From NCBI GenBank assembly GCA_026770705.1, contig JANJGN010000102.1, positions 434,001 to 498,000 on the forward strand: 64,000 bases of DNA, read 5' to 3'. Source of the DNA: Isurus oxyrinchus (taxonomy: Eukaryota). Below the pieces are notes generated by a model, which was given only the letters and a program-made list of their open reading frames with translations, did no database searches and was not told where the DNA came from. Positions 1 through 36,949 of the stretch are shown one piece after another; position 1 is the stretch's first letter; the number at the start of each line of letters is the position of its first letter. Made by a program: the position numbers and the translations under genes.

Positions 1-1941
1 CTGTGGAGGCCAGGTCATTGAGTGTATTTAAGACCAAGATAGATAGGTTCTTGATTGGTAAGGGGATCAGAGGTTACGAGGAGAAGGTGGGAGAATGAAG
101 TTGAGAAACATTTTATGCCATGATTGAATGGCGGAGCAGACTCGATGGGCCGATTGGCCTAATTTCTGCTTCTATGTCTTATGGTCTTATGGTCTAAGAG
201 ATAGGGAGGGTTGTAGGAGCTGCAGGAGGTTGCCATAAGATGTAGGAGCACAAGTAGGTCATTCGGCCCATCCAATCTGCTCTGCCATTCAATGAGATTA
301 TGGCTGATCTGATAAACCTCAAATCCGCTTCCCTGCCTTTTCCCCATAACCCTTGATTCCCTTATTGGTTAAAAGTCTGACACTTCCCTCCATGTCCAGC
401 CACACAGCAAAGATGCTCTCAGGCGGTGTACTTGAATGATAGAATTTTGCAGCACCAAAGGAGGCCATTCAGCCCATTGACTCTGTGCTATAAATCTGCT
501 GAGGCCACTGGAATTTTCATTAATCTGGATTGAGGAAATCTGGGTGATTTTATCTGAAGTCTTTTCTGCTCTGCCGCATTTTCTGAGGAGTTTTGAATCC
601 ATTGGCCTTCCATCTTCTGTAGCCAAGCCTTCCATCAACATAACCACCCTCCGCTTGCACCCTTACTTCTGATCTGCCGTGTGGATGGATTTTATCCAAG
701 AGTATAGCTCAGTATAGTTTTCTTATTTGTAAATAAATCTACCCATTAGTTTTAGCCTGAACGGAATGATTTACTTATAGTATCTACAATGTTTAAAGTC
801 AGGAGGAGGATTATTTTGGAACTAAAGGGTGATTGTTAATGTACGAGCTTTCAGGGTGTGAGCAAAGGCGTAGGCTTTGACTCACAGGGCGCTTAAACTT
901 CATTTAAATAAAATGTCATTCTGTCTCACAAGAGGCTCTTCAGTGCCTTTGGTCTACAAAGGGAGGATGGCGATTCCTGCCTATTTCAATTCTGCAATTA
1001 ACGGGTGTTTGCTTAGGCAAGGGTAGGTGTACAGGTCAGCCATGAGCTAACTGAACGGCAGGTGGAACAGGCTCAAGACACAGAATGGCCTGTTCCTGTG
1101 CTCTGATCAACATTCAGTTACACAACATTGAGCTTGGCAATGGGCCCTCCGCTGTTGAAAACCTTGCTGATGTTCACATGAGGAGGAGGAGTGGGCCAGA
1201 GGGCAACCAGCACCCATGGAGCGTAAGCCCTATTGACTTCAGGGAGAGAGGTGAGAAGACTTGGCAGAATCTGTTACATTAGCCAGCGTCCATGTTGATC
1301 TGACTTGTTAACACAGATCTGTAATAAAAATGCAGCAAAGTCTTTGTGAAGTTCTGGGGAAGAAACAGAGGAAGCATTCAAAAGCAAAACTGCATGTATT
1401 GTTAAAACATGGATTCATTTCTTTTCATTTCCTTCTAGACTCCTTCTAGACTCCTTCTAGTGGTACATGTTTGTATGGTAGCCTTGAGCAGACAAAATGC
1501 ACATTGCAATTTTCAATACACTGCGGTCATGTATATCCAAAGCCACTGATTAATGAGTGGTGTCTATTAACAGTGCATAGCACCAGAGAGTGCTGGGGCT
1601 TTAGCCTGCATATGCACAAGAGCCTCTTGTGAGACAGAATGACATTTTATTTAATGAAGTTGTTCCTCTCATTGGCAAGCTTAGTTGCATCCCTGGGGCA
1701 GCAATGTGCAGGGACGGGTGCAGCAGAAACGTCACTTGATTGGTTTCTGGCACTTTGTAGAAGCAAGATGCCAGGGATGTAGATGCCCGCCTGACAGCAG
1801 CCATGCCTGCCCACCCGCCCTCCCGTCTGTGTTGTGGCCCATAATCTCAAGGTGCCCAAGGGCCTGGGGAAAGAAACAAAGTTGTTCATACTAACCCGGC
1901 GCTGTGATATCTTCCGACCCTAATTCTACTTCGTTCCCCAG

Positions 1942-2043
1942 CTCCTAAGATGAAAAGCTGGCCGACTTACGGATACGTGACCGGGATAGTATTCATGATA
2001 CTTGGAATCATAGCCCTGGCTGGAGGAATCAGCAGGTGGAGAG
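1942..2043 (+). CDS. Second beta-chain (WB-like) paralogue: TM exon; upstream exons lie outside the window
   Basis: ttccccag| ... G|GTAGG, 102 nt, phase 1-1. PKMKSWPTYGYVTGIVFMILGIIALAGGISRWR carries GxxxxxxGxxxxxxG. Confidence 0.75.
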
Positions 2044-2108
2044 GTAGGAATATTGATGCATGTTCTAACCAACTCAGAAACTCCACCTGTTTGGCAATGA
2101 TGAGAGAT

Positions 2109-2502
2109 GGTAGTGTTGTGGTAATGTCACTGGACTAGTAACTCCAGAAGCCCAGGCTAATACTCTGGGGACACAGGGTATTCAAACCCCACCCCAGCTG
2201 CTGGTGGAATTTAAACTCAGTTAATAAAATCCAGAATTGGAAGCCAGTCTCAGTGATGGTGACCGTGAAACTACCATCGAATGTCATAAAAACCCCACCT
2301 GGTTCACTAATGTCCTTTAGGGAGGGAAATCTGCCGTCCTTACCCGGTCTGGCCGACACGTGACTCCAGACCCACAGCAATGCGGTTGACTCTTAACTGT
2401 CCCTCTGAAGTGGCCCTTAGCAAGATACTCAGTTTAGGGGGCAATTACAGACGGGCAACGATTGCTAGCCACGCCCACATCCCATGGAAGGATAAAGAAA
2501 AA
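2109..2502 (+). mobile_element. tRNA-derived SINE (further copies about 2900-3300 -, 29400-29710 -, 43478-43810 +, 44540-44810 -)
   Basis: A/B-box-like head, conserved ggttcactaatgtcctttagggagggaaatctgccgtcctt core, LINE-like tail ending A-rich. Confidence 0.75.
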
Positions 2503-2745
2503 TGATGTGCCTCCATGAGAGGGTGGCATGACAGATTTGTGTTTATAAGCCCCTGTGTACACAAAACCAGCCAGCCCATGAGTTCAGCCGTCACTTCCAT
2601 CTTTCCCCCATTAGGTGTTCCTGGATTGCAGAATGTGTTTCACTGGGGGATGGGTTTCACTGATTTCCGAGAGGATAGGGGCTGGCGGTGGGGAAGAGAG
2701 TGTCAGCCAAGGATTCGGAGCTAATGTTGACTATTTCTTTCCCAG

Positions 2746-2832
2746 GGCTCCATGCCTGTGGCTCACAACCTGAACCAAACCAGAGTCAAGTCAACACGCA
2801 TTCCAATGCGTATTCCTCTAACACGGATTTAG
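2746..2832 (+). CDS. Second WB-like gene: Ser-rich cytoplasmic exon
   Basis: ttctttcccag| ... G|GTAAC, 87 nt, phase 1-1. GLHACGSQPEPNQSQVNTHSNAYSSNTDL shares the HSNxxxS motif and size with 11236-11325. Confidence 0.68.
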   Translation, partial: GSMPVAHNLNQTRVKSTRIPMRIPLTRI

Positions 2833-3634
2833 GTAACAGAGTGACATTTGGTCTCTGCACTGTAGCACGCGTGCACAAGCACTTAATTTTCTTTTGTCCT
2901 TTCATGGGGATGTGGGCATTGCTGGCTAGCCCAGTATTTGTTGCCCATCCCCAATTGCCCCTTGAACTGAGTGGCTTGCTAGGGCCTTTCAGAGGGGAAG
3001 TTAAGAGTCAACCCCCACTGCTGTGGGACTGGAGTCATGTGTAGGCCAGACCAGGTAAGGACGACAGATTTCCTTCCCTAAAGGACATCAGTGAACCAGA
3101 TGGGGTTTTTACGACAATCGATGCCTAAAGGACAGCAGTTTTTACAACAAAGAAATCAATGCTATGAATATCTCGTTTTATATTCCAGATTTATTAATTA
3201 AATTTAAATCCCACCAATTGCTGTGTTGGGATTTGAACCTGTGCCCCCAAAGCATTAGCCTGGTCCTCTTAACTGTAAGTCCAGTGACAATACCACAATT
3301 CCACTGTCTCCTCAATGGTGCACTGTGTCTATAACCTCGCAGCTAAGTTCTGGATGGGAACTGCACTGTTGCTGAGGTGTGTGAAACTCATCCTCCACAT
3401 TAGCATGAGCTCTGCCCAACCTGCTTCAACTCTTGAGGTTCTTCAATCTTCCCAAGGACCCTTTCCCCAACTTCCTTCCCGATCTCAGTCCGGTAACTCC
3501 TGACGGAAAGCATGCAGGCAGACACAAGGCAAGGACGTTATCGGACCTGGCCGATGCTCACAGTCTGGCCTCCCACACAATGCACAACTCCTCAGATGAG
3601 CATAGAGGGTCTATGGACTCTGTGCCCCTGCAAG

Positions 3635-3666
3635 AGGCAGCGACTGCAGAGAAAGACAGATTGTAG
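3635..3666 (+). CDS. Second WB-like gene: last coding exon
   Basis: cccctgcaag| AG GCA GCG ACT GCA GAG AAA GAC AGA TTG TAG |GTAAAC = EAATAEKDRL*. Same KDxx-stop-donor design as 9131-9160. Confidence 0.55.
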
Positions 3667-4324
3667 GTAAACACCGAGAGAGACTATAGTGAAAGAGAGA
3701 CATGCTGCCAAAGCTTTTCATCTTGGACTCCTCAGGACGAACCTAAGAATGCCAACTGTCAGGCGATCACAACAGTTTATACTAGGGAGAAAGGTGCCAA
3801 TTGGTTGGCAGGTTGACTCTGATTGGCCGAGGAGTTACCATGGAGAAAGCAACAGGGAACCATTGGCTCCCTGAACTCCCGAGTAATTCAGAAAAGACAC
3901 AAACCTTGAACATGTTTCTTTTGCTTGCAGAGGGTGGGGCCCTGTGTATGAATGTATGTCACTTCGAGCAAGCATAAATGAGCCACATTACGTGCTTGAC
4001 TGATTATCTTAAATTGGTTGTTAGTGTCACTTGGCGCACTCAGGATTGTTCAGCAAATGCTGCACTTTGTCCTGACAAAAACATTGTTGGCAACACATCC
4101 CCTTTTCCAGCCATATTAAGTTCTGTGCTGTCAATTGACTGATGGTGAAATTACAGCAGCATTATAATTATCTTCTAAAATTAACGTGCTAGCACCATTC
4201 ACGTAGCCCTATACAGCTGCTCGGCAGCAATGGAGAATGTAACAGGAATTGGAGCGTTACAAACAATACTAAACTCTTGTTACCTGTAGATATCTGTCAT
4301 CCCCTCTTGCACTTTTCTTCCCAG

Positions 4325-4835
4325 GAGTATGGACACAGGGGGAGGCTAATCACCTCTATGTGGAAAGTGAACGGACTCCCAGACCCATACCCACTTGAAA
4401 CGGAGCATCAAACTCAGAACCCCCAACCCTCCCCATCCCCCTCCCAGATATCTGGAGACTGAGAGACGTCGGCTGAATCTGCCTCCACTCACCTTCCGAA
4501 AGAGCGTGTCCTGTGGAACCATGAGTCGGAATTCAGTCCAATCGATCACTTCAGAGACTGACTCAGAGGAGCTGACTCTGCGATACAATACACCTCTGGT
4601 TTAGTCTGTTTATTTAACTCTTACTACTCCAGGCTCTGTTAACCTGCGAGAAAAAAACTCATGGCTACTGTTCCACCCTTATTTAATTGATATAATTCTC
4701 ACGTGGCTCCTGCTTGTAGTTACTCCACCGTCACTTGTTACTTTCTGGATTGTTAAAATACATGAACGAGAATTATAAATGGAAACGAAATATACAAAAA
4801 CATAGGAACCAAATAAACTTTAATAGAAAATATGG
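4325..4835 (+). other. Probable 3' UTR exon of the second WB-like gene
   Basis: Pyrimidine-rich acceptor cttttcttcccag| at 4324, non-repeat sequence, AATAAA at 4812-4817. The end coordinate is approximate. Confidence 0.45.
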
Positions 4836-9130: not shown

Positions 9131-9160
9131 CTTATACCGTGTCCTTTGTCAAGCCATCTC
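9131..9160 (-). pseudogene. WB: WB last coding exon
   Basis: ttctgtcttccag| GA GAT GGC TTG ACA AAG GAC ACG GTA TAA G |GTGAGT = GDGLTKDTV*, with a donor 1 nt after the stop. Confidence 0.7.
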
Positions 9161-9594
9161 CTGGAAGACAGAACAAAACTAAAGTCAGCGTGTGGACCGG
9201 GGTTTTGAGCTGGTACATTCTCAAACTGCTTACACCTCTACAGCGAGATCTCTGCTAACCAGTGTAATAGGGCTTGGCTAATGTTGGGCAAGCTGCTGGG
9301 CACTGGTCCTGCCCCATACTGTGTGGGCAATCCACTCACAGTGCAATTGTGACAAGTACAGAGGCTGAATCTGAATGTTCACGGACTGCAAGAGATGGGT
9401 GTCACTGCAGTCCTACAAGGAGAAGATGCCTTGACTAAGCTCAGCTGTTCTGCAAAACTGCCAATGTTTCAATTGACAGCAAGTGTAGAGTACTTGAGAG
9501 ATTCCACGGAGGCCTGGGGTGGATTAATCCAAAAGCTCTTTCTCACTCCTTCAATCGCAAACCCTTAACTTTCTGACCCAGAAGAGGCAACATT

Positions 9595-10380
9595 TACTGC
9601 CCATCCCTAGTTGCCCCTTGAGAAGATGGTGGTGAGCCACCTTCTTGAACCTCAGCAGTCTGTACGGTGTAGGTACACCGATGGTGCTGTTCGGGAGGGA
9701 GTTCCTGGATTTTGACCAAGTGACAGTGAAGAAATGGCTGATGTATTTCCAAGACAGGATGGTGAGTGACTTAGAGGGGAGATTCCAGGTGCTGGCGTTC
9801 CCATGTGTCTGCTGCCCTTGTCCTTCTAGATGGTAGCAGTTGTGGGTTTTGAATGTGCTGTCGAAGGAGCCTTGGCGAGTTCCTGCAGTGCATCTTAGAG
9901 ATGGTACACGCTGCTGCTACTGTGCGTCGGTGGTGGAGGGAGTGAATGTTTATGGATGTGGTGCCAATCAAGTGGGGCTGCTTTGTCCTGGATGGTTTCG
10001 AGCTTCTTGAGTGTTGTGGGAGCTGCACTCATCCAGGCAAGTGGGGAGTATTCCATCACACCCCTGTCTTGTGCCTTGTAGATGGTGGACAGGCTTTGGG
10101 GAGTCAGGAGGTGAGTTACACGCCACAGAATTCTCAGCCTCTGACCTGCTCTTGTAACCACAGTATTTATATGGCTAGTCCAGTTCAGTTTCTGGTCAAC
10201 GGTAACCCCCAGGATGTTGATAGTGGGGGATTCAGTGATGGTAATGCCATTGCTGCATTTGGACATGGACTCTTTTAGCATTTGGGGAGTTGGTAAACAA
10301 TCATCAGCGAACATCGCCAATCTGACCTTGTGATGGAGGGAAGGTCTTCAGTGAAGCAGCTGAAGACGTTTTGGCCGAGA
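9595..10380 (-). mobile_element. LINE 3' fragment of a second CR1/L2-group family (further copies about 30050-30490, 43820-44190, 44820-45160, 50000-50430)
   Basis: MFADD ... LGVTVDQKLNW ... MEYSPLAWMSAAPTTLKKL; tail shared with the local SINE. Confidence 0.8.
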
Positions 10381-10499
10381 ACAGAATAGGACATGATGGA
10401 GTCCATCTTTCTGTGCCTAAGGCCTCCAACCTGCACTACATCTAGTCTATTGAGCATTGCTGGAAAGGTGAGCTATATTGAGGGTCCGACTGATAATAA

Positions 10500-11065
10500 T
10501 GGGTGCCCGTGCGATGCCAGGTATGTAGGTTGTATGTGCCAAGGACTGGCAGGTCATATCAAATAGCACGTCCCTTCAGCTGTTCGCAATAGGCAGAGTA
10601 CTGAACGTCCTCAACCAGCTCGTGCTTGCAAAACTCAGAACATTAATGTCTAACATTAGATGTGATTCCATGATTGGAGAGCACTTACTGAACAAGCCTG
10701 AGCGTGCTAAGAATTATACTGACAACCATTCTAAGATTACCAGTCAGACTTGCAATGTGGCTCACTTATACCTGCTAAAAGCTACATATATTCGTTCGCA
10801 GGGTCCTGTCCTCTGCAGGCAAAAGGAACATGTCCAGGTATTGCGGCTTTTGTTCAATTGAACAAAGGTGTGGCGGACAATAGTTCCCTGGCAATGCCTC
10901 AACCTATCAGAGATATCTGCCAACCACTCAGCACTCTTTTCTTATGCAGTATAAATTGTTGTTCCCTCTGAAATTTGGCATTCTTGCGTCTGTCATGATG
11001 AGTGCATGACAAAAAGCTTCAATAGCCTCTCTCTTTTTTTCAGCTATACTCAAGTTCTGTACTAC
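10500..11065 (+). mobile_element. Second Penelope-like family, decayed GIY-YIG/3' end (related copies about 3690-4060 -, 31200-31520 +)
   Basis: CDARYVG...HVP...IGEHLL remnants; shared 3' block with a CTGATGA/GAAA-like motif. Confidence 0.65.
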
Positions 11066-11235
11066 AAAGTGACTAAGGAGACAAGTAACGGAGCTTGTTT
11101 TATAAATGTACATGCCGTTCCCTTTCTGAATGCCAGATAGATGCTGCCCTCACGCAGAGCACAATGCACAGAGGCCACAGCATGAGCCAGGCTTTTGACT
11201 ATCTTGTTCCCAGGCACCGGGGGTGGGGCCATTAC

Positions 11236-11325
11236 CTGAAGTTGCACTGGAGGCTGAGGTGTTCGAATGCATGCTGGTCTGAGTGCGGTTCGACTTCCGC
11301 TGCTGTTGATTTTTCCAGAAAAGCA
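11236..11325 (-). pseudogene. WB: WB cytoplasmic exon 2 (Ser/Thr-rich)
   Basis: ttccctacag| ... G|GTAATG; 90 nt, phase 1-1. VLFWKNQQQRKSNRTQTSMHSNTSASSATS resembles the paralogous exon at 2746-2832. Confidence 0.72.
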
Positions 11326-11437
11326 CTGTAGGGAAGCAAGAGTGACCAAGAGCTTTTGTGAATATAAGTGAGGTTCTCGCCATGTCGATGCCCGCGGTCA
11401 TTTCTTTTTTTGTGTGTGTTTGTGTATTTACACTTAC

Positions 11438-11467
11438 CTTTTAGTCCAGGGATTCGGGGTTGGTAGC
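11438..11467 (-). pseudogene. WB: WB cytoplasmic exon 1
   Basis: ttccctttcag| GC TAC CAA CCC CGA ATC CCT GGA CTA AAA G |GTAAGT = (G)YQPRIPGLK; 30 nt, phase 1-1, strong splice sites. Confidence 0.75.
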
Positions 11468-11989
11468 CTGAAAGGGAAATAAATCAGGGTTGAAATCTTG
11501 ACAAGTGAATGGAACGGCCAGTTAGAAGTTAGAAACGGGGGCAGGGGTAGGCCATTTGGCCCCTCAAGCCTGCTCCATCATTTAACAAGATCATGACTGA
11601 TCTTCTACCTCCACGCTACTTCTCGGACCTGTCTCCAAATCCTTTAATTCCCTCAATGTCCAAAAATCCATCGACCTTATTACGAACTCAGGACTCTATG
11701 TATTAAATTGTCGCTTTTAATTCAAGGTGAAGTTGATTTTCCTGGAGAGGGGGTTGTTGATCATCCTAAACTCCGCCCGGAGACAGGCCCTTGTGATCCA
11801 TCGCCAAAACCTATGGATAATGAGGCGGCAATTTTGACACAAAGGAGGGACAGCTGGTTTTCTGTGCATAGACATAGAGACCAGGAAAGAGAGACAGGAA
11901 CTGCTGTGAAAAGCAGAGTTAAAGACTGACTTTTATGTTAGTCACCACAATCTGCTGGTAAGCACTGGCTCTCTGTACAAAGAGAGGGC

Positions 11990-12790
11990 ACATGGCCTTT
12001 ATTGAAAGAAGGTTGGATTATAAAAGTAGGGAAATCTTGCTACAACTGAACAGGGCATTGGTGAGATCACACCTGGGATACTGCGTACAGCGTTGGTCTC
12101 CTTACTTAAGGACGGATACACTCACATTGGAAGCCGTTCAGAGAAAATTCACTCGGCTGATTCCTGGGATGAAGGGGTTTGTCTTATAGGGAAAGGTTGA
12201 GCAGGTTGGGCCTCTACCCATTGGAGCTTAGAAGAATAAGAAGTGAAAACATTGACAATTCTGAGGTGAGAAGCTTGACGAGGTGGATGCTAAGATGTTT
12301 CCCCCTCGTGGGGGAATCTGGAACTGCTGGCGGAGGTCACAGTTTCAGAATAAGGGGTCTCCCATTGAAGGCGGAGATAAGAAGGAATTTCTTCTCTCAG
12401 ATGGTCGTTCATCTCTCCCCCAGAGAGGAGTGGAGGCTGGCTCACTGAATATGTTCAAAGCCGAGTTAGACAGATTTTTGATCGACAAGGGAGTCGAGGG
12501 TTATGGAGAGGGGACAGACAGGAAAGTGGAGTTGAGGCCACAATCAGATCAGTCAGGGTTATCCTAGGAACCAGCCGAGAGAACCTTCACTGAACTGCTT
12601 CTCATGCAGTGATATCCATTCTTATGTAAGGAGATCACAACTGCTCTCAGTGCTCCAGGTGCATTCTAACTAAGGCACAGGACAGCTCTATAAAGATTTC
12701 TCTACTCTGATACTCCATCCCCCTCGTAATAAAGGCCAACATTCCATTTGCCTTCCCAACCACTTGCTGCATCTACGTACCAACATTTTG
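11990..12790. mobile_element. CR1 3' fragments
   Basis: ALVRSHLGYCVQRWSPYLR and LGLYPLE motifs. Confidence 0.8.
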
Positions 12791-13155
12791 TGGCCGGATT
12801 AGTTTCAGTCAGAGAAGATCCTTCCGGATTTTCTCCCCCCAGTTAGCCTGGGTTTGTAACCTGGCTCCTCACCTCTCCCAGGTGATGAGGTGTCTGTCAG
12901 GTGCAGAGGTGACTGCAGATCCTGGGATGCACAAGCATCAGTGGGGCGGGCTGGATGTGACACGCCCATTCCAGGAAAATCCTTTTTTTAGGGTTTTGTG
13001 GAGATCCTCGAGTCTCAGGTAGTTTGCAATTCGCGGGAAAGCAGGAAGGTGCTGGGAACGACCTTGGACCTCAGAGTTGGCACAGGCAGGAACATCAATG
13101 TTCCAGTGCCCTTGGAAAAGAGCAGAATGATTTCAGCAGCCATGAGGCCCCGTAC

Positions 13156-13266
13156 CTTGACGTTTCATTCGAAAAACAGCTCCAGTTACGGCAGTCAGGA
13201 TGCCACTAATTCCGAACAATATTCCAACAATGGCCGCAGCAGACAGTGAGCTCTTACGTTGGGGGT
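13156..13266 (-). pseudogene. WB: WB connecting peptide/TM exon (frame intact)
   Basis: Acceptor ttttggaag|, donor G|GTACGG, 111 nt (the class II beta TM exon size). DPQRKSSLSAAAIVGILFGISGILTAVTGAVFRMKRQ carries the beta-chain GxxxxxxGxxxxxxG motif. Confidence 0.88.
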
Positions 13267-16855: not shown

Positions 16856-17126
16856 CCCAGTTGGTGCGGTGTCCATCTGGAAAAGTGACATGCTCCACAA
16901 AGCACGTGTACATGTCCTCTGTCTTGGGGTCAATGTTGATGAATGCAGCCGTCTGGAAGGCCTTCTCACTGTTGGGAAGGATCTGAGTCTGTACCACTTG
17001 CTCGTCAATGTTCCCATCATTTTTTAGCCAGGGCGCTTGGATCGAAGCCGGCGACTGTACACTGAAGTTGGCTGGAATGGTCAAAGTCTTCCAGATCGTA
17101 GAAGGAGATGGTCACTGAAGGGGACG
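16856..17126 (-). pseudogene. WB: WB beta2 Ig C1-set exon with a frameshifting deletion
   Basis: Acceptor ccattctcag|, donor TGG G|GTAGG. Frame A reads SPSVTISFYDLEDFDHSSQLQCTVAGFDPSA; frame B reads WLKNDGNIDEQVVQTQILPNSEKAFQTAAFINIDPKTEDMYTCFVEHVTFPDGHRTNW. Length 271 nt, 11 short of the usual 282-nt beta2 exon. Confidence 0.88.
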
Positions 17127-22400: not shown

Positions 22401-24120
22401 ATGATTATATGGCTTCACTTTCAGTGTGTTAATTTGAGGAGCAGTGGCTACTGCAGGGGCAGTCAAAGCACTGGGTAAAGTCCCCATACAGAAGCCAGGC
22501 CACTGACCGATTGACCGGTCTTCGTTGGGTCAAATCGTGACCTGCCCTCAAAGAAAATGACACTTAACTGTTCTCGTAAGGGAACTACAGGAATTTTTAA
22601 GTCAACATGAATAAACGGTTAGGGTCTTGAATAAACAGGGGTTCCCAGGAGAGTGTGACAGTATGCACAGGGGTCCCCGAGGGACTGTGTCAGTATTTAC
22701 AGGGGGTCCCCGAGGGGTGTGTCAGTATTTACAGGTGGTCCCGGGGAGTATGTCAGTATTTACAGGGGGTCCCCGAGGGGTGTGTCAGTATTTACAGGGG
22801 GTCCCGGGGAGTATGTCAGTATTTACAGGGGGTCCCGGGGAGCATGTCAGTATTTACAGGGGGTCCCGGGGAGTGTGTCAGTGTTTACAGGGGGTCCCGG
22901 GGTGTGTGTCAGTATTTACAGGGGGTCCCGGGGAATGTGTCAGCTGCTGCACTGATTGCATATGGGAAATAACATTACCGAGAGGAGGCATGTTCGAGCA
23001 CCCACTCCAACTGGGGGACACCAAAGTGCATAAATCACAGAGGTGTCACGCGAGTTTGACAAATCCTCCACCAAATCCAAAGGCTTCTCAAGAGTCCTTA
23101 AGAAAACAGCCTTTGAGTTCAGGATCACTGCTTCTGGCAATGAAAGAACAGGCCTGCTAGTATCGGTTGAATCTCAGCACAGTTAATTATTTGAGAAATG
23201 TCATCACCTTAGTTTCAGTGACAGTGGATTTGATTTGTGTTTTCAGCCTTGCTCGGGCGCAAAGAGTTCCTGGTTAGGCTCATTTGAGATTAATCACACC
23301 TCTTATGTAAAGACTCTTATGTAATTCTCTCTGGCAGCATGATACGATGCTGTGCAATTCCAAGAATTCCCCATATCTAATCCTGCACATCTGAGGGGTT
23401 TTTTTGGGCAGTCTACCTGACCTCTGCAGGGTGCATCAGCTCGGATCAGAGTTGTGGTTGTGGGGTTTAGTTGTGTTAAGCTGTCTTGTTCCTGTAAAGG
23501 TACGGGAACTGCCTGTGGGGAAGTGGTCCAGATGGAGTTAAAAAGGAACAGGAGGAGAACATTCAGCCCCTCACGAGCATGATACACAGGAACAGGAAGA
23601 GGCTATTCAGCACCTCTTGAGCCTGTTGCACAGGAACAGGAGAATGCCATTCAGCCCCTCTTAAGCCTGTTTCTCAGGAACAGAAGCAGGGCATTCAGCT
23701 CCATTCGAGCCTTTTTCACAGAAACGGTAGGAGGCCATTCAGCCCCTCTCGGGCCTGTTGCATAGGAACAGGAGGAGGCCATTGAGCACCAACACCCCCT
23801 GCCTCACACCAGCCTGTTATACATAAACAGGAGGAGGCCATCCAGCCCTCTCGAGCCTATTATGCCTGGGGGAGGAATCTGTCTCTTGGCCTCGCGCAGC
23901 TGCTTGTGGGACCTTGCTGTGCGCAAAGAAGCTAAGGTGGTAACAGCAGTGACTGCAGTCCAGAAATCGTCCATGGGCTACAAAATGTGTTGGGACGTCC
24001 TGAGGTGGGAGGGGGGCAAGGGGGTGAGGTGAAAGTGTCAGTTGAGGAAGGCTCCTGACTCCCCCACCCCGCTTAAACCGACGTTTCAAATCCTGACACT
24101 CCCCCTAACCCCCTCCCGCC

Positions 24121-24683: not shown

Positions 24684-24768
24684 ATGGGCTGTCCAAGGCA
24701 AAAAAATAAAGCTGGTTTTCTCTGCGCATTGCTGTTAGCATGGCTGTTGGGCTCCGCGATAGAATGTG
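24684..24768 (+). CDS. WA: MHC W-category alpha chain (WA), exon 1: signal peptide
   Basis: ATG at 24684 reads MGCPRQKNKAGFLCALLLAWLLGSAIEC (basic N-region, hydrophobic core). Ends in a phase-1 donor G|GTAAG, as MHC leader exons do. Confidence 0.85.
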
Positions 24769-24874
24769 GTAAGATGATGATTTTAATCGATTCTTTAACT
24801 CTTTTTAACCCAATGTTAGGTTGGGGCGATGTCAGAGGAAGAATGTGAAATATTTACACACTTCTGTTACATTG

Positions 24875-25545
24875 AACATTCCCAGGGCACATACAGCATG
24901 ACGTTAGATACAGAGTAAAGCCCCCTCTACATTGTCCCCATTAGACAGTCCCAGGACAGGTACAGCATGGGATTAGATACAGATTAAAGCTCCCTCTACA
25001 CTGTCCCCATCAAACACTCCCAGGACAGATACAGCACGGGGTTAGATACAGAGTAAAGCTCCCTCTACACTGTCCCCATCAAACACTCCCAGGACAGATA
25101 CAGCACGGGGTTAGATACAGAGTAAAGCTCCCTCTACACTGTCCCCATCAAACACTCCCAGGACAGGTACAGCACGGGGTTAGATACAGAGTAAAGCTCC
25201 CTCTACACTGTCCCCATCAAACACTCCCAGGACAGGTACAGCACGGGGTAGATACAGAGTAAAGCTCCCTCTACACCATCCCCATCAAACAATCCCAGGA
25301 CAGGTACAGCACGGGATTAGACACAGAGTAAAGCTCCCCCTACACTGTCCCCATCAAACACTCCCAGGACAGGTACAGCACGAGGTTAGATACAGAGTAA
25401 AGCTCCCTCTACACCGTCCCCATCAAACACTCCCAGGACAGGTACAGCACAGAGTTAGATACTGAGTAAAGCTCCCTCTACACTGTCCCCATCAAACACT
25501 CCCAGGACAGGTACAACACAGGGTTAGATACAGGGTAAAGCCATC
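24875..25545 (+). repeat. 69-bp minisatellite array
   Basis: About 9-10 units. Confidence 0.95.
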
Positions 25546-25685
25546 TCAACTGGCACATTTTGGGGTTAATGGCTGTTGGTGAGTGGAGACTGACAGGTCT
25601 TTGTGAATTCTCAGCTCAGGTGGGAGAAAGACCAGCGTTGGTCTTGGAAACTGGAGATAGCTTAAGTTGTATTTGTATTTATAGG

Positions 25686-26882
25686 TGTTAGGAATAAGCT
25701 GTAGCTTTAAGTTTAAATTTAATTTTTATTTCTGTATTTGTTTTTTAAAGGAACCTGAGTTTTAATTTCGCTTTAAACTGATGCCTGCAATTTGAGGGCT
25801 TTGTTTGTATACCTGAATTCTACTAAGATTTTATGGCTCTTGAAGTAGGAAAAATTATGCTGTTGCCTAGCAACAGGGGGGTCCACAGAGACAGAATAGC
25901 AGTTTTAGTTCACTTGGAAGCAGGTGCCAGGAGAAGCTGGACACAAGAGAGGGGACTGCAGGAAGCAGGTTCGAAAGGATGAGAAGTTCCCAAACCAGGG
26001 AGTGGCTCAGGAGAAAAGTCCCAGGAAGACAGTGAAGTCAAGGGAGAAGAACAAGAATTTGAACAAGGTCCTGCCTAGTGAAGTTAAACTTAGGAGCAGA
26101 GGACAATGCTCCAAATTAAAGAGAGAAAGCTGCAGAGAACAGACTTAAAGCAAATTAGGCATGTTGGAAGGCAAAAGATCCAAGGAGACAGCTGAGGGTC
26201 GAAAACTCTTTACTATGAGCATGTGAAGCAGGCACGGCTGAGTATCGGAGAGAGAGTACAAGGAAGGCAAAGTTTGAATGCACATGGTGATCCAGAGGAG
26301 AGGAACATCAGAAGGAAAGATCGAAAGCCTGGAAGTGGACCCTTGTGGAAGGCGTCAGAGAGAAAACGTCATTTGGGAGAAGATTCTAAAGCAAATTCTT
26401 CACAAGTGGAGATTGGAAACCTTCGTATAAAAGATGAAGTTCAGTGAGCCCGGTTGGCTCACTGTGTGACAAGTGTCTGGGGGGAGCTGATGAGAGATCC
26501 TTCGCATGCATTTGGGGTGGCACTGTCACTTGGTTACAGAGTGTGGTGTGTCTGACCACAGGTCGATTATTGGTTTACATGGACTATGTACTTACAGTGA
26601 AGCTTAGAGGATAGGATAGCTTTTTAACTTGTGTTACCTTTATGAATCTATATATATCCATGAAGGTGTAGTTGTGGGTAATGGAGTATTGTTAATATAG
26701 TTCATCTTTTCTTGCTTAATAAATGTTTTATTGTTTTGTTAAAAATTCATCAGCTGTCTCCTGTGACTGTTCAGTGGCTGCCCTCCACGTTTCTAAATAA
26801 AAAATAAAAGTTAGGTTCTATCCAGCTGAGTTCCAACTTGGGATCTGAATTGTCCAGTAGTAACATCAGCTGGGATCGTAAC
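25686..26882 (+). mobile_element. Probable solo LTR in WA intron 1
   Basis: Begins TGTTA, ends GATCGTAAC, with AATAAA signals near the 3' end and no coding content. No clear TSD. Confidence 0.45.
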
Positions 26883-27059
26883 TGACGCTTAGTCCGTTTT
26901 TAGGTGACAGTGGCTGTCACCCTCTAAATATCACACACCAGATGTCATGCTGCACACATCTTAACCATTCTTGCAAATGATTATTTCAAAGCAGAGAGAA
27001 AGAGGGAGAGAGAGAGAGAGGAATTCTAGTCAAGGGTAGGAATCAGATGGAACAGTCAG

Positions 27060-28220
27060 AGAATGGCTGTGGCACAGAAGGAGACATTCAGCCCATCGTG
27101 CCCTCTGCAAGAGATCTCACCCAGTCCCACTCCCAACCTTTTCCCCGTAACCCTGTACATTCTTCCTTTTCATATAACAATCCAATTCCCCTTTTGAAAG
27201 CCTCGACGGATCCTGCCTCCATCAGGCTCTCAGGCAGCACATTCCAGATCCTAACCACTCGCTGTGTGAAAAAGTTTCTCCTCATGACTCCATTGCTTAG
27301 AACCATAGAAAAGTTACAGTGCAGAAAGAGGCCATTCAGCCCATTGTGTCTGTACCGGCCATAAAGAGAAAAGAAGTTAACCTCTTTTTTAATCCCACTT
27401 TCCAGCACCTGGTCCATAGCCTTGCAGGTTACAGTACCTCAGGTGCAGATCCTGGTACCTCCTAAATGTGTTGAGTGTTTCAGCCTCAACCACTAATTTC
27501 AGGCAGTGAATTCCAGATCCCCACCACACTCTGGGTGAAGAAGTTTTTCCTCATGTCCTCTCTAATCATTCTATCAATCACCTGAAATCTGTGCCCCCTG
27601 GTAATTGACCCCTCAGCTAGGGGGAAACGGGTCTTTCCTGTCTATCCTATCTAGGCATCTCATAATTTTGTACACCTCAATTAGGTCACCCCTCAGCCTC
27701 CTCTGTTCTAAGGAAAACAACTCCAGCCAATCCAATCTTTCCCCATAGCTGCAATTTTCCAGCTCTGGCAACATTCTTGTAAATTTCCTCTGTGCTCTCT
27801 CCAAAGCGATTATGACCTTCTTGTACAAAAAATTCCAGCTGTGGCCTAACCAGCATTTTATACAGTTCCATCATTTCATTCCTCCTTTTGTATTCAATAC
27901 TTCATCCAATAAAGGAAAGCATTCCACATGCTTTCTTGATCACTTTGTCCACCTGTCCTGCCACCTTCAGGGACCTGCAGACATGCAGTCCAAGGCTTCT
28001 CACTTCCTCAACCTCTCTCAATATCCTCCCGTTTATTGAGTAGTCCCTTGTCTTTTTTGAACCCCCTCCAAATGCATCTCTGGATTAAATCCATTTGCCA
28101 CTTTTCCGCCCACTCAACCAAACTTTCTTTTGCCAATTGCCTTAAATCTGTCTCCTCTGGTTCTCGATTCTTCCACCAAGTTTCTCCCTATCTACTCTGT
28201 CCCAGGCCCCTCATGATTTT
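27060..28220 (-). mobile_element. CR1 3' fragments
   Basis: LELFSLEQRRLRGDLIEVYK; RRNFFTQRVVRIWN. Confidence 0.8.
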
Positions 28221-28639
28221 CAAAGTGGAATCGTTATATTTTATAAGATATTCCAAACCATCTTTGATTAATAAGCTAAAGCATGAATGTCTGAATATGA
28301 CTGATTGCACCTATGTTATTTACTTTATTAACTACAATAGCTGAGGGAACACAATAGTTCGCTTAATATCCAAAGCACATATTTCATTCTGCTTTTTTCA
28401 TTCTGCCAGTGTGCAAATAAATCATCGCAATTGAATTCCTTGGTGCAACGTTCCTTGTATACGATGGTAACCTGCACCAGCTGTCTTCTTTTATTCTGCA
28501 TTATTTTCAGGATAATGTGGGTGTCCTTTACCTAGCATTCATAGCAGCAGGGAAACCAGCCAATCCCCCTCCCTTTTCTTTTCTGTTCCAGTCTCACTCA
28601 GCCAACCCCCCCCTCCGCACCCTCACTTCTTCTTCCAGT

Positions 28640-29320
28640 ACATTGATGACAGCCGCTTCCTCTGCTGGTCCTGAACCGGAACATTTCAATCAACTTTGCT
28701 TCCAATCTCCACACTTATGTTCAGTCCACGGGCGTCACCCTGAAATTCTGGTTGCCTGTCTCTTTAATTTTCCACCTCACTCTGACTCTGATCTCCCTGC
28801 CCTCGGTCTGCAGTGCCGTTCTGATTCTGACCTCCCTGCCCTCGGCCTGCGGCGTTGTTCTGACTCTGACTTCCATGTCCTCGGTCTGCGGTGCCGTTCT
28901 GACTCTGACCTCCCTGCCCTCGGACTGTGGCGCCATTCCAATGAAGCTCAAGGAGTAACACATCTTTTAATTAGTCGCTTTACAGCCTTCTGGACTCAAC
29001 ATTGAGTTCAACAATTTTAGATCATAATCTCTATTCCCATGCTTTGGGCGGCAGCTGTTGGTGATGATCCTATGTTTCCCGTTTACACCTCCTCTAGATC
29101 TATCATCCATTTCTATTTTGTCTAATTACCATCTTTTTTGTCCTTGCACCCTCCTCCCATTTGTCATTTAATCTCTCCCGTCTTCTCTACCCTATTCCAG
29201 ACCTTCACTTTTGTTCTTCCTACCCCTCCCCACTCCTCTGTATTTGTTTGAAACCTGTCATCTCTCTTTCCCCAGCTCCAATGTAAGGTCTTCGAGCTTG
29301 AATGTTAACCCTGTTTCCCT
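28640..29320 (+). mobile_element. Decayed Penelope-like 3' fragment with an internal 42-bp tandem repeat (about 28780-28935)
   Basis: Similar to 15870-16050 (ttgcctgtc..tttaa, ttccaatgaagctcaa, acagccttctggactcaacattgagttcaacaa). Confidence 0.65.
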
Positions 29321-30786
29321 CGACAGCATTACTGCCTTGGCTCTGGACCATTCCTGGCTTTTTCAGAGTCCCTTACTTATGCTTGTGTGTTTATTTTCTA
29401 TTCCTTCTTGGGATGTAAGTGTTGCTGGCGAACCGGCATTTGCTGCCCACCCCAAATTGCTTCTTGAACTGAGTGTCTCACTAGAGCCACTTCAGAGGGG
29501 CCAATTAAGAGTCAGCCACATTGCTGTGGGCCTGGAGTCACATGTAGGCCAGACTGGGTAAGGATGGCAGATTTCCTTACCTGAAGGGACAGTGAACCAG
29601 ATGGGGTTTTTACACCAATCCAGTAATCTCATGATTATATCAGCTTTTTAAATTCTGGGTTTATTAATGAATTTCATTTACATTTCCCCAGCTGCCATGG
29701 TGGGATTTGAATTCATGGGCAGGATTTTTTGAATGGGTCCCGCGCCATCACCCACAGAGTCAATGGGGACACTACCTCGCTGATCCTGGCAGCCGTTGAA
29801 CACTCCATGAGGCTTTCGTTGTCTAAGTTTGAGGCCATTGCCTCACCACCACCCCCATCCCCCGCCCCCACCCACCCCCCCCCCACCCCACCCCAAACCT
29901 GGGGAGGGGGAGCCATCGTAAGAGAGCTGCTGGTTAACCTGATTGGCTGACAGAACTATAGTCCCAGCAGCGCCACGTTTGAGCGGTGCCCACTGCTAAG
30001 GCTACAGCCAGTCCTCGAAGAGGAGGTTATGAAGGCCGGTGTTTTTTTATTCTTTCATGGGATGTGGGCATCGCTGGCTAGACCAGCAACTATTGCCACC
30101 CCCTATTGACCTTGAGAAGGTGGTGGTGAGCCGCCTTCTTGAACTACTGCAATCCCTGTGCTGTAGGTACACCCACAGCACTACTAGGGAGGGAGTTCCA
30201 GGATTTTGACCCAGCGACAGTGGAGGAACGGCTGATGTATTTCCATGTCAGATGGTGAGTGGGTCGGAGGGGAGCTCACAGGCGGTAGTGTTCCCATGTG
30301 TCTGCTGCCTTTGTCCTTCTAAGTAGTAGTGGTCGCGTGTTTGGGCGGTACTGTCACAGGAGCCTTGGTGAGTTGCTGCAGTGCATCTTGTCGATGGTAC
30401 ACACACTGCTGCCCCTGTGTGTTGGAGGGAGTGAATGTTAAAGGTGTGGATGAGGTGTCGAACAAGCAGGGCTGCTTTGTCTTGGATGATGCCCATGGAG
30501 TGGCCAGGTAAAGAGCCTCAACAGGTCCAGGGGGCCCCACACCTCCACTGCCCCCCTCCCACCACCCCCACCCCCACCACCCCCCCACCCCCCTCCATAA
30601 GATAAGAGACAGCTCGGAGTGGGTGGGTACGTGGCAGACAGGCCACTTGCTGCATATCACCAGCAGTGCCACCGGGTTCGCAAGTGGGGGGGAACCATAA
30701 AACCATGGCTCTGGATTATGAGCCCAATGACATCCACAGTAAGTTACCATCCCCTGAAGCTGATCCCAATTATTTTTCACTTCTAG

Positions 30787-31035
30787 CAGAGCAAAGAGTG
30801 CGGGGGATGATTTTCAGCGTCTCTGACAGCCGGACCTCCATCGTCACCTCGACCACTGATGACATGACCCTCGCCTACCATAACAGCACCGAGTCCAACT
30901 TTGTGTTCCTTATCGAGGCGCTGAATGCGCTCCATGCTGAGTCAAACAATCTCATCCAGAAATACCAGAGCTATCTGACATTGAATGAAATCTTTCTCAA
31001 CGAAATGGCGAACCGCATCCCGGAGAAACAAAACG
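30787..31035 (+). CDS. WA: WA exon 2: alpha1 (membrane-distal) domain
   Basis: Acceptor ttttcacttctag| (NAGNAG alternative at 30790), phase 1-1, 249 nt, donor G|GTAAT. Reads AEQRVRGMIFSVSDSRTSIVTSTTDDMTLAYHNSTESNFVFLIEALNALHAESNNLIQKYQSYLTLNEIFLNEMANRIPEKQN. TTDDMTLAYHNS resembles the MHC alpha1 VDDxxFVxFDS segment. Confidence 0.85.
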
Positions 31036-32482
31036 GTAATTTGAATAGTCACTTGGTGGTACGGAATATGAGCATTGGTGAAAAACAGACATGATGTTGA
31101 AACTTTTTGTCTCACAATCATCAGGATAGATGGAAGAATGCCAAATTTCAAAGGGGAGAGAGAACAAAGAATGACACTAAGAACTACACCAATGACCATT
31201 TTTAAATTATCAGTGGGATTCGCACATACACATGCTAGAAGCTACATATATTCATATGCAGGGACCTGCCCTCTGCAGACAGAAGGAACATATCCAGCCA
31301 TGGCACCTTTTTCGAACTAAATAAAAGTGTGAGGGACAAAAGCTCCCTGGTGCATTCTCCATGGCAACACCTTGACCAATAAGAATTGACTTTCCAGCCA
31401 ATCAGCACCCTATTCTCATGCAGTATAAATTGTTGCTCCCTCAGAAATTTGGCATTCTTGCTTCTGTCCTGGTGAGTCCAAGAGAAAAAGCTTTGACAGC
31501 ATGTTTCTTTTCTCAGCAATCCTCAAATGCTGTACTGTCAGGTGACCAGTCTTTAATTCTATGATTCCTTTCTCAATTACCTCATGCTCCCCCTCATAGA
31601 GTTAAACAGCACAGAAACAGGCCCTTCAGCCCGTATTTGTCTCAGTTTGAGATATCCCATCCACCCCATCGCCTGCTTTATGCTCAGTTCTCAATCCTCC
31701 TCCCTTACTTATTGGAACATCCCGGGAGCTCCAAGACGGTGAGGCACTAGGCTCGGGACACGAGTCAAGGAACAGGGGAGGCCATTCAGCCCCTTGAGCC
31801 TGCATCACCATTCAATCCAATCGTGGCTGATCTACAACCTAACTCCATTTTAGGCCACACCTGGAGTCACTGTGAGCAGTTCTGGGCATCACACCTTCGG
31901 AAAGATATGCTGACCTCGGAGAGGGTTCTGTATTGATTGACCAGAATGATCCCTGGACTCCAAGGGTTAAATTCTGAGGAGAGGTATCAGAAACTATGCT
32001 CATATTCCCTGGAATTGAGAAGATTAAGGGGGTGATCTGAACAAAGTTTTCGAGATATTCATGGGAACTGATAGCTCTGATTGAGAGGGATCGTTTCTCG
32101 CTGGTCGGGGGGGTAGGGTAGTCTGGGACAAGGGGGCAGAGTCTGAAAATGAGAGCTAGACCCTTCAGGAGTGAAGTGAGGAAAAACTCCTACACACAAA
32201 GGGTGGTTGGAGCTTGAAACTCTCTTCCCCAAATGGCCATTGATGCCGGGTCAATTGTTAATTTTAAATCTGTGAGATTGAGAGATTTTTGCTAACCAAA
32301 GGTTTTAAGGGATACTGGGCGAAGGCAGGTAGGTGGAGATAGGTGACAGATCAGACATGATCTCGCTGAATGGTCAAAGTCTTCCTGTTCTGTCTATTTG
32401 GGGGGGGCGATCTGCTTAATTTTGAAGATGCGAGCTCTGCTGCTAACACCCCCTTTCAAGTTTTTAACCTTGTGCCTTCCAG

Positions 32483-32761
32483 ACGACCCCATAGTGTTGC
32501 TTTATCCGGGTGAACCCTTCACCTTAGGGGGGAAGAACACCCTGAATTGTTTTGTGAGTCATCTGTTTCCGCCAGTGGCCCATGTGTCCTTCCTGAAGAA
32601 CGATCAGCCCCTATCTGGGCAAGTGAGGTCCTCGCAGTTCACCTTCGACAACAGCTGGACGTTTCAAATCTTGAAATATGTGCAAATTGAGCCTGCTGTC
32701 GGGGACAACTATTCGTGTGTGGTGGAGCTAGTCACCAAGGAGCAGTTCCAAGCCTACTGGG
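32483..32761 (+). CDS. WA: WA exon 3: alpha2 Ig C1-set domain with beta-2-microglobulin-like residues
   Basis: Acceptor ccttccag|, 279 nt, phase 1-1. Reads DDPIVLLYPGEPFTLGGKNTLNCFVSHLFPPVAHVSFLKNDQPLSGQVRSSQFTFDNSWTFQILKYVQIEPAVGDNYSCVVELVTKEQFQAYW. Two Ig cysteines; FTFDNSWTF parallels b2m LSFSKDWSF; VSFLKN lacks the canonical C-strand Trp. Confidence 0.92.
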
Positions 32762-33645
32762 GTACAGTCCATCATTAAAACTGGGGTACATTGATCATTA
32801 ACACTGCGGTATACTTATCATTAATACTGGGGTACAGACCATCATTAACACTGGGGTACAGATCATCATTAACACTGGGGTACAGTCCATCATTAGCACT
32901 GGGGTACAGATCATCATTAACACTGGGGTACCCTGATCATTAACACTGGGGTACAGACCATCATTAACACTGGGGTACAGATCATCATTAACACTGGGGT
33001 ACAGTCCATCATTAGCACTGGGGTACAGATCATCATTAACACTGGGTTACCCTGATCATTAACACTGGGGTACAGACCATCATTAACACTGGGGTACAGA
33101 TCATCATTAACACTGGGGTACAGTCCATCATTAGCACTGGGATACAGTTATCATTAACACTGGGATATACTGATCATAAACACTGGGGTACAATTATTAA
33201 CACTGGGATACACTGATCATTAACACTGGGGTACCCTGATCATTAACACTGGGGTGCAGTCCATCATTAACACTGGGGTACACTGATCATTAACACTGGA
33301 ATACAATCCATCATTAACACTGGCGTACAGTCTGTCATTAACACTGGGATATACTGATCGTTAACACTGGGATAAAGTGATCATTAACACTGGGGTACAC
33401 TGACCATTAACACTGGGGTACACTGATCATTAACACTGGGGTACACTGAACCTTAGCACTGGGATACACTGAACCTTAGCACTGGGATACACTGATCATT
33501 AGCACTGGGGTTTACTGAACATTAGCACCAGGGTACAATCCATCATTAACACTGGGATATACTAATCATTAACACTGGGGTACACTGATCATTAACATTT
33601 GGGTAAAGTCCATCATTCACAGTGGGATACAGTATGTCATTAACA
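32757..33645 (+). repeat. About 22-24-bp minisatellite starting at the WA alpha2 splice donor
   Basis: Unit ctggggtacagtccatcattaaca. Confidence 0.93.
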
Positions 33646-34385
33646 GTGCGACACAGTAACTGACAGACAAGGCACAAACTGACAGACAGACATTTACAGA
33701 CTGACAGACAGGCAGAGACGAATTGACAGACATAGACTGCGAGGCAGACAGGTGCAGACTGAGACAGATAGACACAGACTGATGGAAAGATACACAGGCA
33801 GACATTGACAGCCGGTAAAAACACACTGAAAGACAGATACACACAGGGCAGACAGGGGTTTCAGACCCATTCACAACAGCAGAGGTGAAGGTAGACACGG
33901 TCAGAGACAGACACACACACACACCACACACACAGTGACAAACACACACACACAATCACAGAAACCCACAGTCATAAACACTCACTGTCACAAACACAGT
34001 CACAAAGATACACACTGTCATATATATGCACACAGTCGTAAATGCACACACAATCACAGACACACACTCATAACATGCAGTCACAGGCACACACATAGTC
34101 AAAGACATACACAGTCACAGACACACACAGTCATAAACACAGACAATCACAAACACACACAGTCACAAACACACACAGTCACAAACACACACAGTCATAA
34201 ACACACACAATCACAAACACACACAGTCACAAACACACACAGTCACAAACACACACAAAGACATACACAGTCACAAACACACACAGTCACAAACACACAC
34301 AGTGAAAGACATACACAGTCACAAACACACACAGTCACAGACACACACAATTACAAACACACACACAATCAAAGACATACACACA

Positions 34386-35975
34386 GGGCAGAATTTTACA
34401 TCTCGCAGACGAGTCCCCACCCGACGTGATTGGGTGTAAAATAGTGCGCGATGACATCAGGTGAGCGTCCCGACGTCATCCTGCGCTCACACGATATTTT
34501 GCTCAGTGAGCGCACATGGGAGTCGGAGCCGTGCCCATCATCAATTAGAAGGCTGCTTCAGGCCATTAAAAAGGCAATTGACCAAGGTTTCACGTTGCCT
34601 GCGATTTCATGCTCATTGCACGGGTAGGTGGGCAGCCGACATTTTGGCAAAACCTCATCCAAGGACGGGATAAAAAGGGTTAGCAGCATTGCCAGTGTGA
34701 GGACTTTGGTAGATAGTTTGCTGCCGGTTCCTTATTGGTACTTGGCAGCTTCATCTCTGTCCAGGGCTTCATTGATAGCATTTCCAGGCTGGATGTGAGG
34801 ACTCCTTGATGTTTTCAAGGCTCCTGGAGGATTTTGACCGTATAGACCCTTCCAGGTGTGACCCTGGTAATGGGGATTGTGCTCCCCGCTGGAGGCACCT
34901 CCTCTGAAGAGGAAGAGAGGGGCAGAAGGGAGAGGAGGCCTGCTATCCCAATGCAGCTTCTGGGGGGGAGCGAACTGTGGGGGGAAAGGTGCAGGCACAG
35001 CGGGCACAGAGCCAGCAGGTATCCCACAGCGGAAGGGGCCTCAGTGGACGCCACTATCCTGCTGCCAGGGTTTACAGGTGGCAGTGCAGCTACATCAATA
35101 TGTCCGGCTGACCCACTGGTGCCTTGATGGCCACATGTGTGCAGTCGATGGTACCCTGGACGCAGGGGAACCTAGCAATCATTGCAAAGCCTCTGGCTCA
35201 CTCAACCTGGCTGGCCTCGTTCGTACGGAAATGAATAACTGTCAGTGCCCACCTGATCAGAGCTTCTCTCACCAGCTTCATGCAACTGTGAACAGCTGAC
35301 TGGGAGACTCCACACAGATTCCCCACTGACCCCTGGAAAGTGCCAGAGGCATAGAAGTTGAGGAGCACTGTGGCCTTCAGAGCCACTGGCTTGAGGTGTC
35401 CACCCACACAACCGGAGATGATCTCAGATCCAGTCATCTGGCAAACGGAGGTCACGGTCTCCCTTGAGAGGCAGAGCCTCCTTCGGCATTGCACCTCCGA
35501 CATATAGAGGTAGCTGCATCGCCGCCTGTAAACCCTAGCAGCAGGATAGTGGCATCTTCTGCAGCCCCTTCTGCCTTGGACTACCTGCTGGCCCTGCACC
35601 CCCTGTGCCTGCACCTCTCATCCCACAGGTCGCTCCCCTGGAGGCTGAATATCGACACCTGGCCTCCTCCCCCTTCTGCCCTCTCTTCCTCCTCAGAGGA
35701 GGTGCCTCCAGCGGAGACCACAATATCCATTACCTGGGTAACAAGAGGATGTTTGATACCTGGAAGGGTCCACATGATCTGAATTCTCCAAGGTCCTTAG
35801 AGACACCAAGGAGTCCTCAATTGAAGTCTGGAAATGCTAACAATGAAGCCCCAAACAGAGATGAAGCTGCTATATAGCAATAAGTCACCAGCAGCAAACT
35901 ATCTACCAAACTCCCCACTTCTCATTTTGGCAATGCTGCTGACCCTTTTTATCCCATCCGTGGATGAGATTTTTG
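34386..35975. mobile_element. PIF/Harbinger transposon remnants: two left-end pieces in inverted orientation
   Basis: Minus-strand LNFYASGTFQGSVGNLCGVSQSAV and FPCVQGTIDCTHVAIK (HARBI1-like DDE motifs). Terminus GGGCAGAATTTT at 34386. Confidence 0.8.
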
Positions 35976-36637: not shown

Positions 36638-36753
36638 GGCAGAATTTTATGACAGCGGGGATTTTACATTCCCGCTGTTGTCAATGGCATTTATAACAGC
36701 CCGCCGCATTTTACGGCTCTGTCCCCATGGTAACGGGGCCGTAAAATTCTGCC
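36638..36753. mobile_element. MITE sharing its terminus with the Harbinger element
   Basis: TIRs GGCAGAATTTTA ... TAAAATTCTGCC, flanked by CAC on both sides within a CA-rich tract. Confidence 0.75.
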
Positions 36754-36916
36754 CACACGGTCACAAACATGCTCAGTCACAAACACAGTCATGCACAAAT
36801 ACACATACACATTTACACACACACAGTCAAAATCATGCTTAGTCACAAACACAGTCACGGACAAGCACACACACACAGACAAAAACATGCTCAGTTACAA
36901 ACACAGTCATGCACAA

Positions 36917-36949
<33 letters not shown>

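Follow-up and report, generated by a model that had tools for sequence, protein, structure and literature searches.

The window, i.e. the whole stretch of 64,000 nucleotides of Isurus oxyrinchus DNA analysed here, contains a W-category beta-chain gene whose cytoplasmic tail is assembled from several small exons. The initial annotation of this DNA regarded the tail as class I-like and suggested that the class I tail design may trace to a WB-like beta chain. The question that the locus raises is whether this tail carries information on the origin of class I tails or represents a lengthened tail of the class II beta type.

Identity of the gene and the published record

Judged from its sequence, the gene encodes a WB DS3-like member of the W-category beta chains, a kind already published, and by similarity the DNA is probably that of a lamniform shark. 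A beta-2 fragment as the query gave the white shark (Carcharodon) protein P0001, which is 95% identical over that query, and P0001 used as the query in its turn gave five further shark orthologues, one cluster member being named WB_DS3_01 (BBO94057). The beta-2 domain of WB chains lacks the class II W61 and has the class I-type P57. The same holds in the window, where beta-2, aligned as in the rows of Dataset S2, reads ILPNSEKAFQ with P57 present and K at position 61, which is also not the usual G. WB genes are paired head-to-head with a WA gene carrying Y8, F/L37, F57 and W61 in alpha-2, and all four residues occur (by comparison with a Dataset S2 row) in the WA Nds3L-like neighbour:

24684..40078, plus strand: WA Nds3L-like gene, head-to-head partner, open frame over five exons
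24684-24768, plus strand: candidate leader exon
30787-31035, plus strand: alpha-1 exon
32483-32761, plus strand: alpha-2 exon
37277-37401, plus strand: TM exon
39950-40078, plus strand: tail exon

The published WB DS3 and DS3-like genes (Okamura et al. 2021, PMC8713811; BBO94057, XP_041035560) share with the window gene the domain plan, the head-to-head pairing with WA Nds3L, the TM segment and the entire 54-aa tail. According to the same paper, the WB-WA heterodimer has been demonstrated at the cell surface in the tiger salamander only (PMC8713811). A search of the PDB returned class I and class II chains only, with no W-category entry, among the best 60 of 1066 matches.

The tail sequence itself is already published, since the tail of the white shark orthologue is printed, along with that of the banded houndshark, in Dataset S3 of Okamura et al. 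2021 (PMC8713811), and Fig. 2 of this paper marks exon borders inside the CP/TM/CY region. In its main text the words “tail”, “tyrosine” and “serine” are absent and “cytoplasmic” occurs once, class I is not represented in Dataset S3, and passages of other W-category papers, as well as the W-type passages of PMC10751288, are silent on W tails. The comparison of WB tails with class I tails, not made in the main text or Dataset S3, may be unpublished; the SI Appendix may bear on that.

Exon structure of the tail

The chain from the connecting peptide to the stop codon is encoded by four exons:

13266-13156, minus strand: connecting peptide/TM exon, 111 nt, with class II beta-type glycines
11467-11438, minus strand: tail exon 1 (CY1), 30 nt, begins GYQP
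11325-11236, minus strand: tail exon 2 (CY2), 90 nt, Ser/Thr-rich
9160-9132, minus strand: tail exon 3 (CY3), terminal, 29 nt including the stop (nine codons and stop), ends in Val

An AG acceptor precedes each of the four exons and a GT donor follows each of the three internal ones. The TM-CY1-CY2-CY3 junctions are in phase 1 throughout, and the predicted spliced frame is open, giving a tail of 54 aa. Joined from TM to stop, the peptide has 86 residues, of which 79 are shared with P0001, the white shark RefSeq protein, and seven differ, with no gaps; because of this gap-free match the three tail exons are not a product of chance, and the initial description of the tail, as about 54 residues over a 30-nt GYQP exon, a Ser/Thr-rich exon and a terminal exon ending in Val, was correct. 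The peptide of CY3 matches the last nine residues of P0001, and an alternative acceptor of CY2 at 11352 corresponds to the white shark isoform X1 (P0004). When positions 9100-13160 were scanned without bias for open exons in phase 1 at both ends and with fair splice sites, five candidates came up at three places; no donor scored higher than that of CY1, and CY2, where the acceptor is strong, was the second place. Ser and Thr make up 11 of the 30 residues of CY2, and 10 of these are located in its last 18.

Degeneration of the window copy

The window copy cannot make the protein and is classed as a pseudogene of the WB family; it may be an inactivated paralogue or, alternatively, a null allele. 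While leader, beta-1, beta-2 and CP/TM/CY are intact in the orthologues and in presumed RNA contigs, the window copy differs from published WB DS3 by the lack of beta-1 and by frameshifts in leader and beta-2:

22941..22991, minus strand: leader remnant, which has lost 1 nt behind about codon 11 and is truncated further on by the minisatellite
22635-22943: 31-bp minisatellite, which cuts off the leader
16856..17126, minus strand: beta-2 exon, shortened from 282 to 271 nt by an 11-nt deletion near 17029 that leads to a frameshift and an early stop; GFYP is changed to GFDP

This upstream breakage had been missed in the initial annotation. When orthologues were used in tblastn, the leader start, beta-2, TM and tail were recovered (beta-2 as a control at E 7e-44), and a beta-1 exon was not found anywhere in the window with four orthologue queries and three matrices (best E 0.08). 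A beta-1-like match at 24463-24344 was rejected: its E value is 0.13, it contains a stop and it lies upstream of the leader.

The leader and beta-1 lesions are read from the assembly only; for the beta-2 exon, four sequencing runs were compared with positions 16740-17260. The 11-nt deletion is not an assembly slip, since a contig of the possible source sample that covers this whole stretch has it; this sample gave the deleted form only (83% of a run's contigs). The deletion was also present in two of five raw reads of another sample, namely the two covering the site (4% of the run; maybe one fragment). Two contigs of one further sample, X19 and X20, which bear the same species label and are RNA by guess, retain the 11 nt and run past the ends of the beta-2 exon through the beta-1/beta-2 and beta-2/TM joins, X20 joining beta-2 to the TM exon. 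An intact spliced version exists, because these contigs keep the 11 nt and continue into beta-1 and TM. Compared with it, the window copy carries, over beta-2 plus the first codon of TM, four amino-acid and two silent changes, including the Tyr to Asp change in GFYP. Bearing on the choice between paralogue and allele, X19 and X20 are two intact variants from one sample, and a single scaffold of the white shark has a pair of DS3-like models.

The window also contains the remains of a second WB gene:

623..4398, plus strand: 3' part of a DS1-like WB gene, also broken; beta-2 remnant at about 623-703, TM at 1942-2043
2746-2832 and 4325-4398, plus strand: DS1-like tail exons, 87 and 74 nt

Its tail is encoded by two exons and has neither G-Y nor a terminal Val. 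That both WB genes are broken next to a WA gene with an open frame fits the birth-and-death turnover of a multicopy shark W cluster. The tails read from this window should be treated with caution as pseudogene tails; that of the DS3-like copy is never reached in frame.

Length, composition and layout of the tails

WB tails are long in comparison with the short class II beta tails, as had been proposed: the median lengths are 54, 56 and 36 aa in three WB groups versus 19.5 aa in eight class II beta chains. They are also generally richer in Ser. The Ser+Thr medians are 0.24 in WB DS3 and 0.25-0.27 in class I versus 0.12 in class II beta, with lower values, 0.16-0.17, in WB DS1 and in the salamander and coelacanth WB. 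A homologous Ser-rich exon of 87-90 nt can be detected in both the DS1 and DS3 subgroups.

The multi-exon layout makes a weak premise for separating WB from class II, given the exon plan of human DRB and DMB, in which the TM exon is followed by a short exon and a terminal exon, as in WB. Beta-type TM glycines are common to WB and class II beta, and DM-beta carries a G/S-Y equally far from the membrane. The tails of class II beta and DM-beta differ in being 13-24 aa long and in lacking the Ser-rich 90-nt exon of WB. Class I tails have in common with WB several small tail exons, a Ser-rich distal part and a G-Y-x-P near the membrane, the latter being found in lamniform WB. The WB tail differs from them in its length (54 aa versus a median of 31), the absence of YxxA, an unconserved Tyr, a 90-nt middle exon and the lack of alignment beyond composition. 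The initial idea is supported as regards the length and Ser content of WB tails relative to class II beta, but not as regards the Tyr and the terminal Val as class I marks.

Tyrosine and terminal valine

A conserved class I-like Tyr was one argument for the link with class I, and it was staked on conservation among orthologues, which it does not show. At codon 2 of CY1, white and basking shark have Y, catshark and houndshark H, Heptranchias C and whale shark R, and the sawshark model lacks the segment, so that Tyr occurs in two of seven orthologues, both lamniform. The columns that are invariant in all seven are V264, F266, K268, S275, R277, S281, N285, S290, A291, S293 and G294, with no Tyr among them. 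In Dataset S3, a G-Y after the membrane is found in one of the 29 WB rows, and a Tyr at the same distance from the membrane in all seven DMB (DM-beta) rows. The tail is likely uninformative on the origin of class I tails, because the Tyr is missing in most related sharks.

The motif itself also deviates. The class I tail consensus is given as YxxA (PMC6769792), and of 72 unique class I tails with a median length of 31 aa, 48 contained [YF]xxA; these are predicted proteins, with turtles and sturgeons heavily represented and no sharks, and the set excludes tails below 15 or above 70 aa and those lacking a clear TM. In the WB tail of the window the motif is YQPR with Arg at Y+3, and none of the seven orthologues has YxxA. 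The same Arg distinguishes it from the true YxxPhi signal of DM-beta (PMC8010645). A terminal Val, put forward as a mark of class I, is a poor one, for only three of the 72 class I tails end so, compared with four of the seven WB DS3 orthologues. The spiny dogfish class I tail has GYNPA, then a Ser-rich end and Ala as the final residue (PMC4364491 supplement); by eye, its GYNPA is visibly close to the lamniform GYQP, this being the sole shark class I tail compared and standing outside the scored sets. No shark class I protein was found among the best 120 of 908 profile matches.

Alignment of WB tails with class I and class II tails

Mean local-alignment scores were calculated between hand-picked groups of tails (7 WB DS3, 7 WB DS1, 3 lobe-finned WB, 3 DM-beta, 8 class II beta, 6 ray-finned and 8 lobe-finned class I), several members of which are unnamed and assigned by sequence, and which contain no shark class I protein. 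Shuffling of whole tails was rejected as a control because it breaks up the Ser clusters, and we used window shuffles, which keep the local composition, and reversed sequences. For WB DS3 versus ray-finned class I, z was 5.8 under whole-tail shuffles and fell to 1.3-1.6 under window shuffles; versus lobe-finned class I, window shuffles gave -1.3 to -0.8. Under the same shuffles the controls reached 11-12 (class I versus class I) and 5.5-6.0 (WB DS3 versus WB DS1). These z values are not probabilities, since the members of a group are related.

The hhalign probability for WB DS3 versus class I was 0.6%, with 94% for the class I control; reversed WB DS3 tails scored about equally (23.8 versus 25.8 and 22.4 versus 21.1); and the Ser-rich CY2 matched class I tails no better than window-shuffled or reversed sequences, in a test whose power is low at such depth. 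For WB DS3 versus class II beta or DM-beta, z was 0.3-1.6, with no significant signal. One of the six WB-class I pairs, WB DS1 versus ray-finned class I, kept a z of 2.5-2.8 under window shuffles, which was not repeated with lobe-finned class I. The tests thus give no sequence signal between WB DS3 and class I beyond composition, and the likeness of the two appears to be compositional. A null score between WB and class I is compatible with an old homology, since the same test misses the link between shark WB and the salamander and coelacanth WB (z -0.3 to 0.3).

Origin of the WB tail

Taken together, the locus presents the 54-residue tail of a known WB DS3-like chain in a broken copy. The tail is likely of the class II beta type, lengthened by a Ser-rich exon, and its Tyr lineage-restricted rather than an inherited class I motif. 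We hold this origin to be likely, and the function proposed below less so. On the exon sizes of DRB and DMB, CY1 and CY3 would correspond to the short exon 5 and the terminal exon 6 of class II beta, and the middle exon CY2 would be an addition of shark WB. In an intact gene, the tail may act through the invariant V-x-F-x-K at the start of CY2 and the S-x-R...S...N...S-A-x-S-G cluster, most plausibly as a phosphorylation-regulated trafficking or docking segment and not as a Tyr-based sorting signal. The K-V-L-F present in four of the seven orthologues fits the PP1 docking consensus RVxF, and we regard this as a lead only.

Alternatively, the beta lineage may have had from the outset a succession of short exon, Ser-rich exon and short end exon, the Ser-rich exon having been kept by class I and WB and lost by classical class II beta; CY2 would then be a homologue of class I exon 7 whose motifs diverged beyond recognition. 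We consider this unlikely, even if several observations are in its favour: in both models of class I origin the heavy chain receives CP/TM/CY along with the beta-type domains (PMC8236899; PMC8713811), three tail exons are known in H2-Kb (PMC4950430), WB tails are long and rich in Ser or in Ser and acidic residues in sharks, teleosts, salamanders and coelacanth, the Ser+Thr content of WB DS3 is close to that of class I and about twice that of class II beta, and the DS1 pair with ray-finned class I holds its score. These are opposed by the roughly equal scores of reversed tails, which argue for a compositional likeness, by the modest Ser+Thr content of WB DS1 and of the salamander and coelacanth WB, and by the variation of tail exon number within WB itself (two in DS1, three in DS3). 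Moreover, tail lengthening took place on the alpha side too, since WA Nds3L has a long tail with an added exon.

Two readings that attach weight to the Tyr appear far less credible. The initial annotation in its strong form would make the GYQP exon the homologue of class I exon 6 together with its Tyr, and the terminal Val that of class I. GYQP does resemble the GYNPA, GYSPA and GYTPA of fish class I, and an ancestral Tyr is not impossible because Y is one transition from H and from C. This form is nevertheless very improbable, having been largely refuted by the orthologue alignment; the lack of Ala at Y+3 also speaks against it, and the scarcity of a final Val in class I, with Ala in dogfish, weakens its second part. 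The WB Tyr is the first full codon of CY1, behind a Gly codon split at the junction, whereas the class I Tyr lies mid-exon, and a 10-codon exon contains a Tyr by chance about one time in four. It is equally hard to believe that CY1 is what is left of a Tyr sorting exon resembling that of DM-beta (G-Y-x-x-I/L-P-G) and inherited from the class II side, although the best single alignment of the lamniform CY1 is with an amphibian-type DM-beta tail (P0143, six identities in eight columns with one gap) and the Tyr stands at a matching membrane distance throughout the DMB rows. YQPR is not a YxxPhi signal, the Tyr is unconserved, the group test gives a z of 1.5-1.6, chondrichthyan class II beta lacks the Tyr, and DM has been reported absent from sharks (PMC8010645).

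That the Ser-rich exon shared by the shark WB subgroups is a true homologue of class I exon 7 we hold to be improbable. With the present data the arguments from Tyr and Val fall away, and only the compositional likeness is left. If the homology were true, a W-type beta chain would have passed the tail on to class I as a fourth region, in addition to three interdomain interfaces. It would thus give independent support for class I arising from a W-type class II-like pair, and the class I trafficking signals would predate the split of the classes.

Tail motif and splicing of the WB DS3-like gene

The start of tail exon 2 (11325-11311, minus strand) carries the motif V-x-F-x-K, which is invariant in the alignment A1 of WB DS3 orthologues (7/7 tails); K-V-L-F is present in four of the seven. 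The consensus for PP1 docking is RVxF, and the K-V-L-F of these four tails is compatible with it. The other features of this region and of its neighbours are as follows.

623-4398, plus strand: second WB gene of the window, DS1-like, broken
11352, minus strand: alternative acceptor of tail exon 2 of the WB DS3-like gene, adding nine residues
13758-16052, plus strand: retroelement open frame, reverse transcriptase, 764 aa, in the intron between the beta-2 and TM exons of the WB DS3-like gene
24684-40078, plus strand: WA Nds3L-like gene, five exons, open frame

The extension provided by the acceptor at 11352 is the same as that found in the white shark isoforms X1, X2, and X4. The TM-exon acceptor of the window gene is AAG, weak and pyrimidine-poor. 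In the white shark RefSeq models P0002 and P0006 (isoforms X4 and X5), the TM exon is skipped and the tail is kept; these models predict a soluble WB. The retroelement ends in a GIY-YIG-like C-terminal segment and, judged by eye, is Penelope-like.

Neighbouring and related genes

In the DS1-like gene, the beta-2 exon is frameshifted and residues ~134-196 are missing; the TM exon and the two tail exons each keep an open frame. The WA Nds3L-like gene is open across its five exons, yet its head-to-head WB partner is dead; the WA tail exon is acidic (42 aa) with a phase 0 junction. One white shark scaffold bears two DS3-like models; the second, P0007 (XP_041035497), has an unusual N-terminus, its tail is frameshifted, and it is possibly a decaying duplicate.

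The tail ends of WB Nds5L resemble those of DS3, with a Ser run followed by D-G/D-L-T-K (Okamura Dataset S3, PMC8713811). This likeness of sequence suggests that the last two tail exons are common to the shark subgroups Nds5L and DS3.
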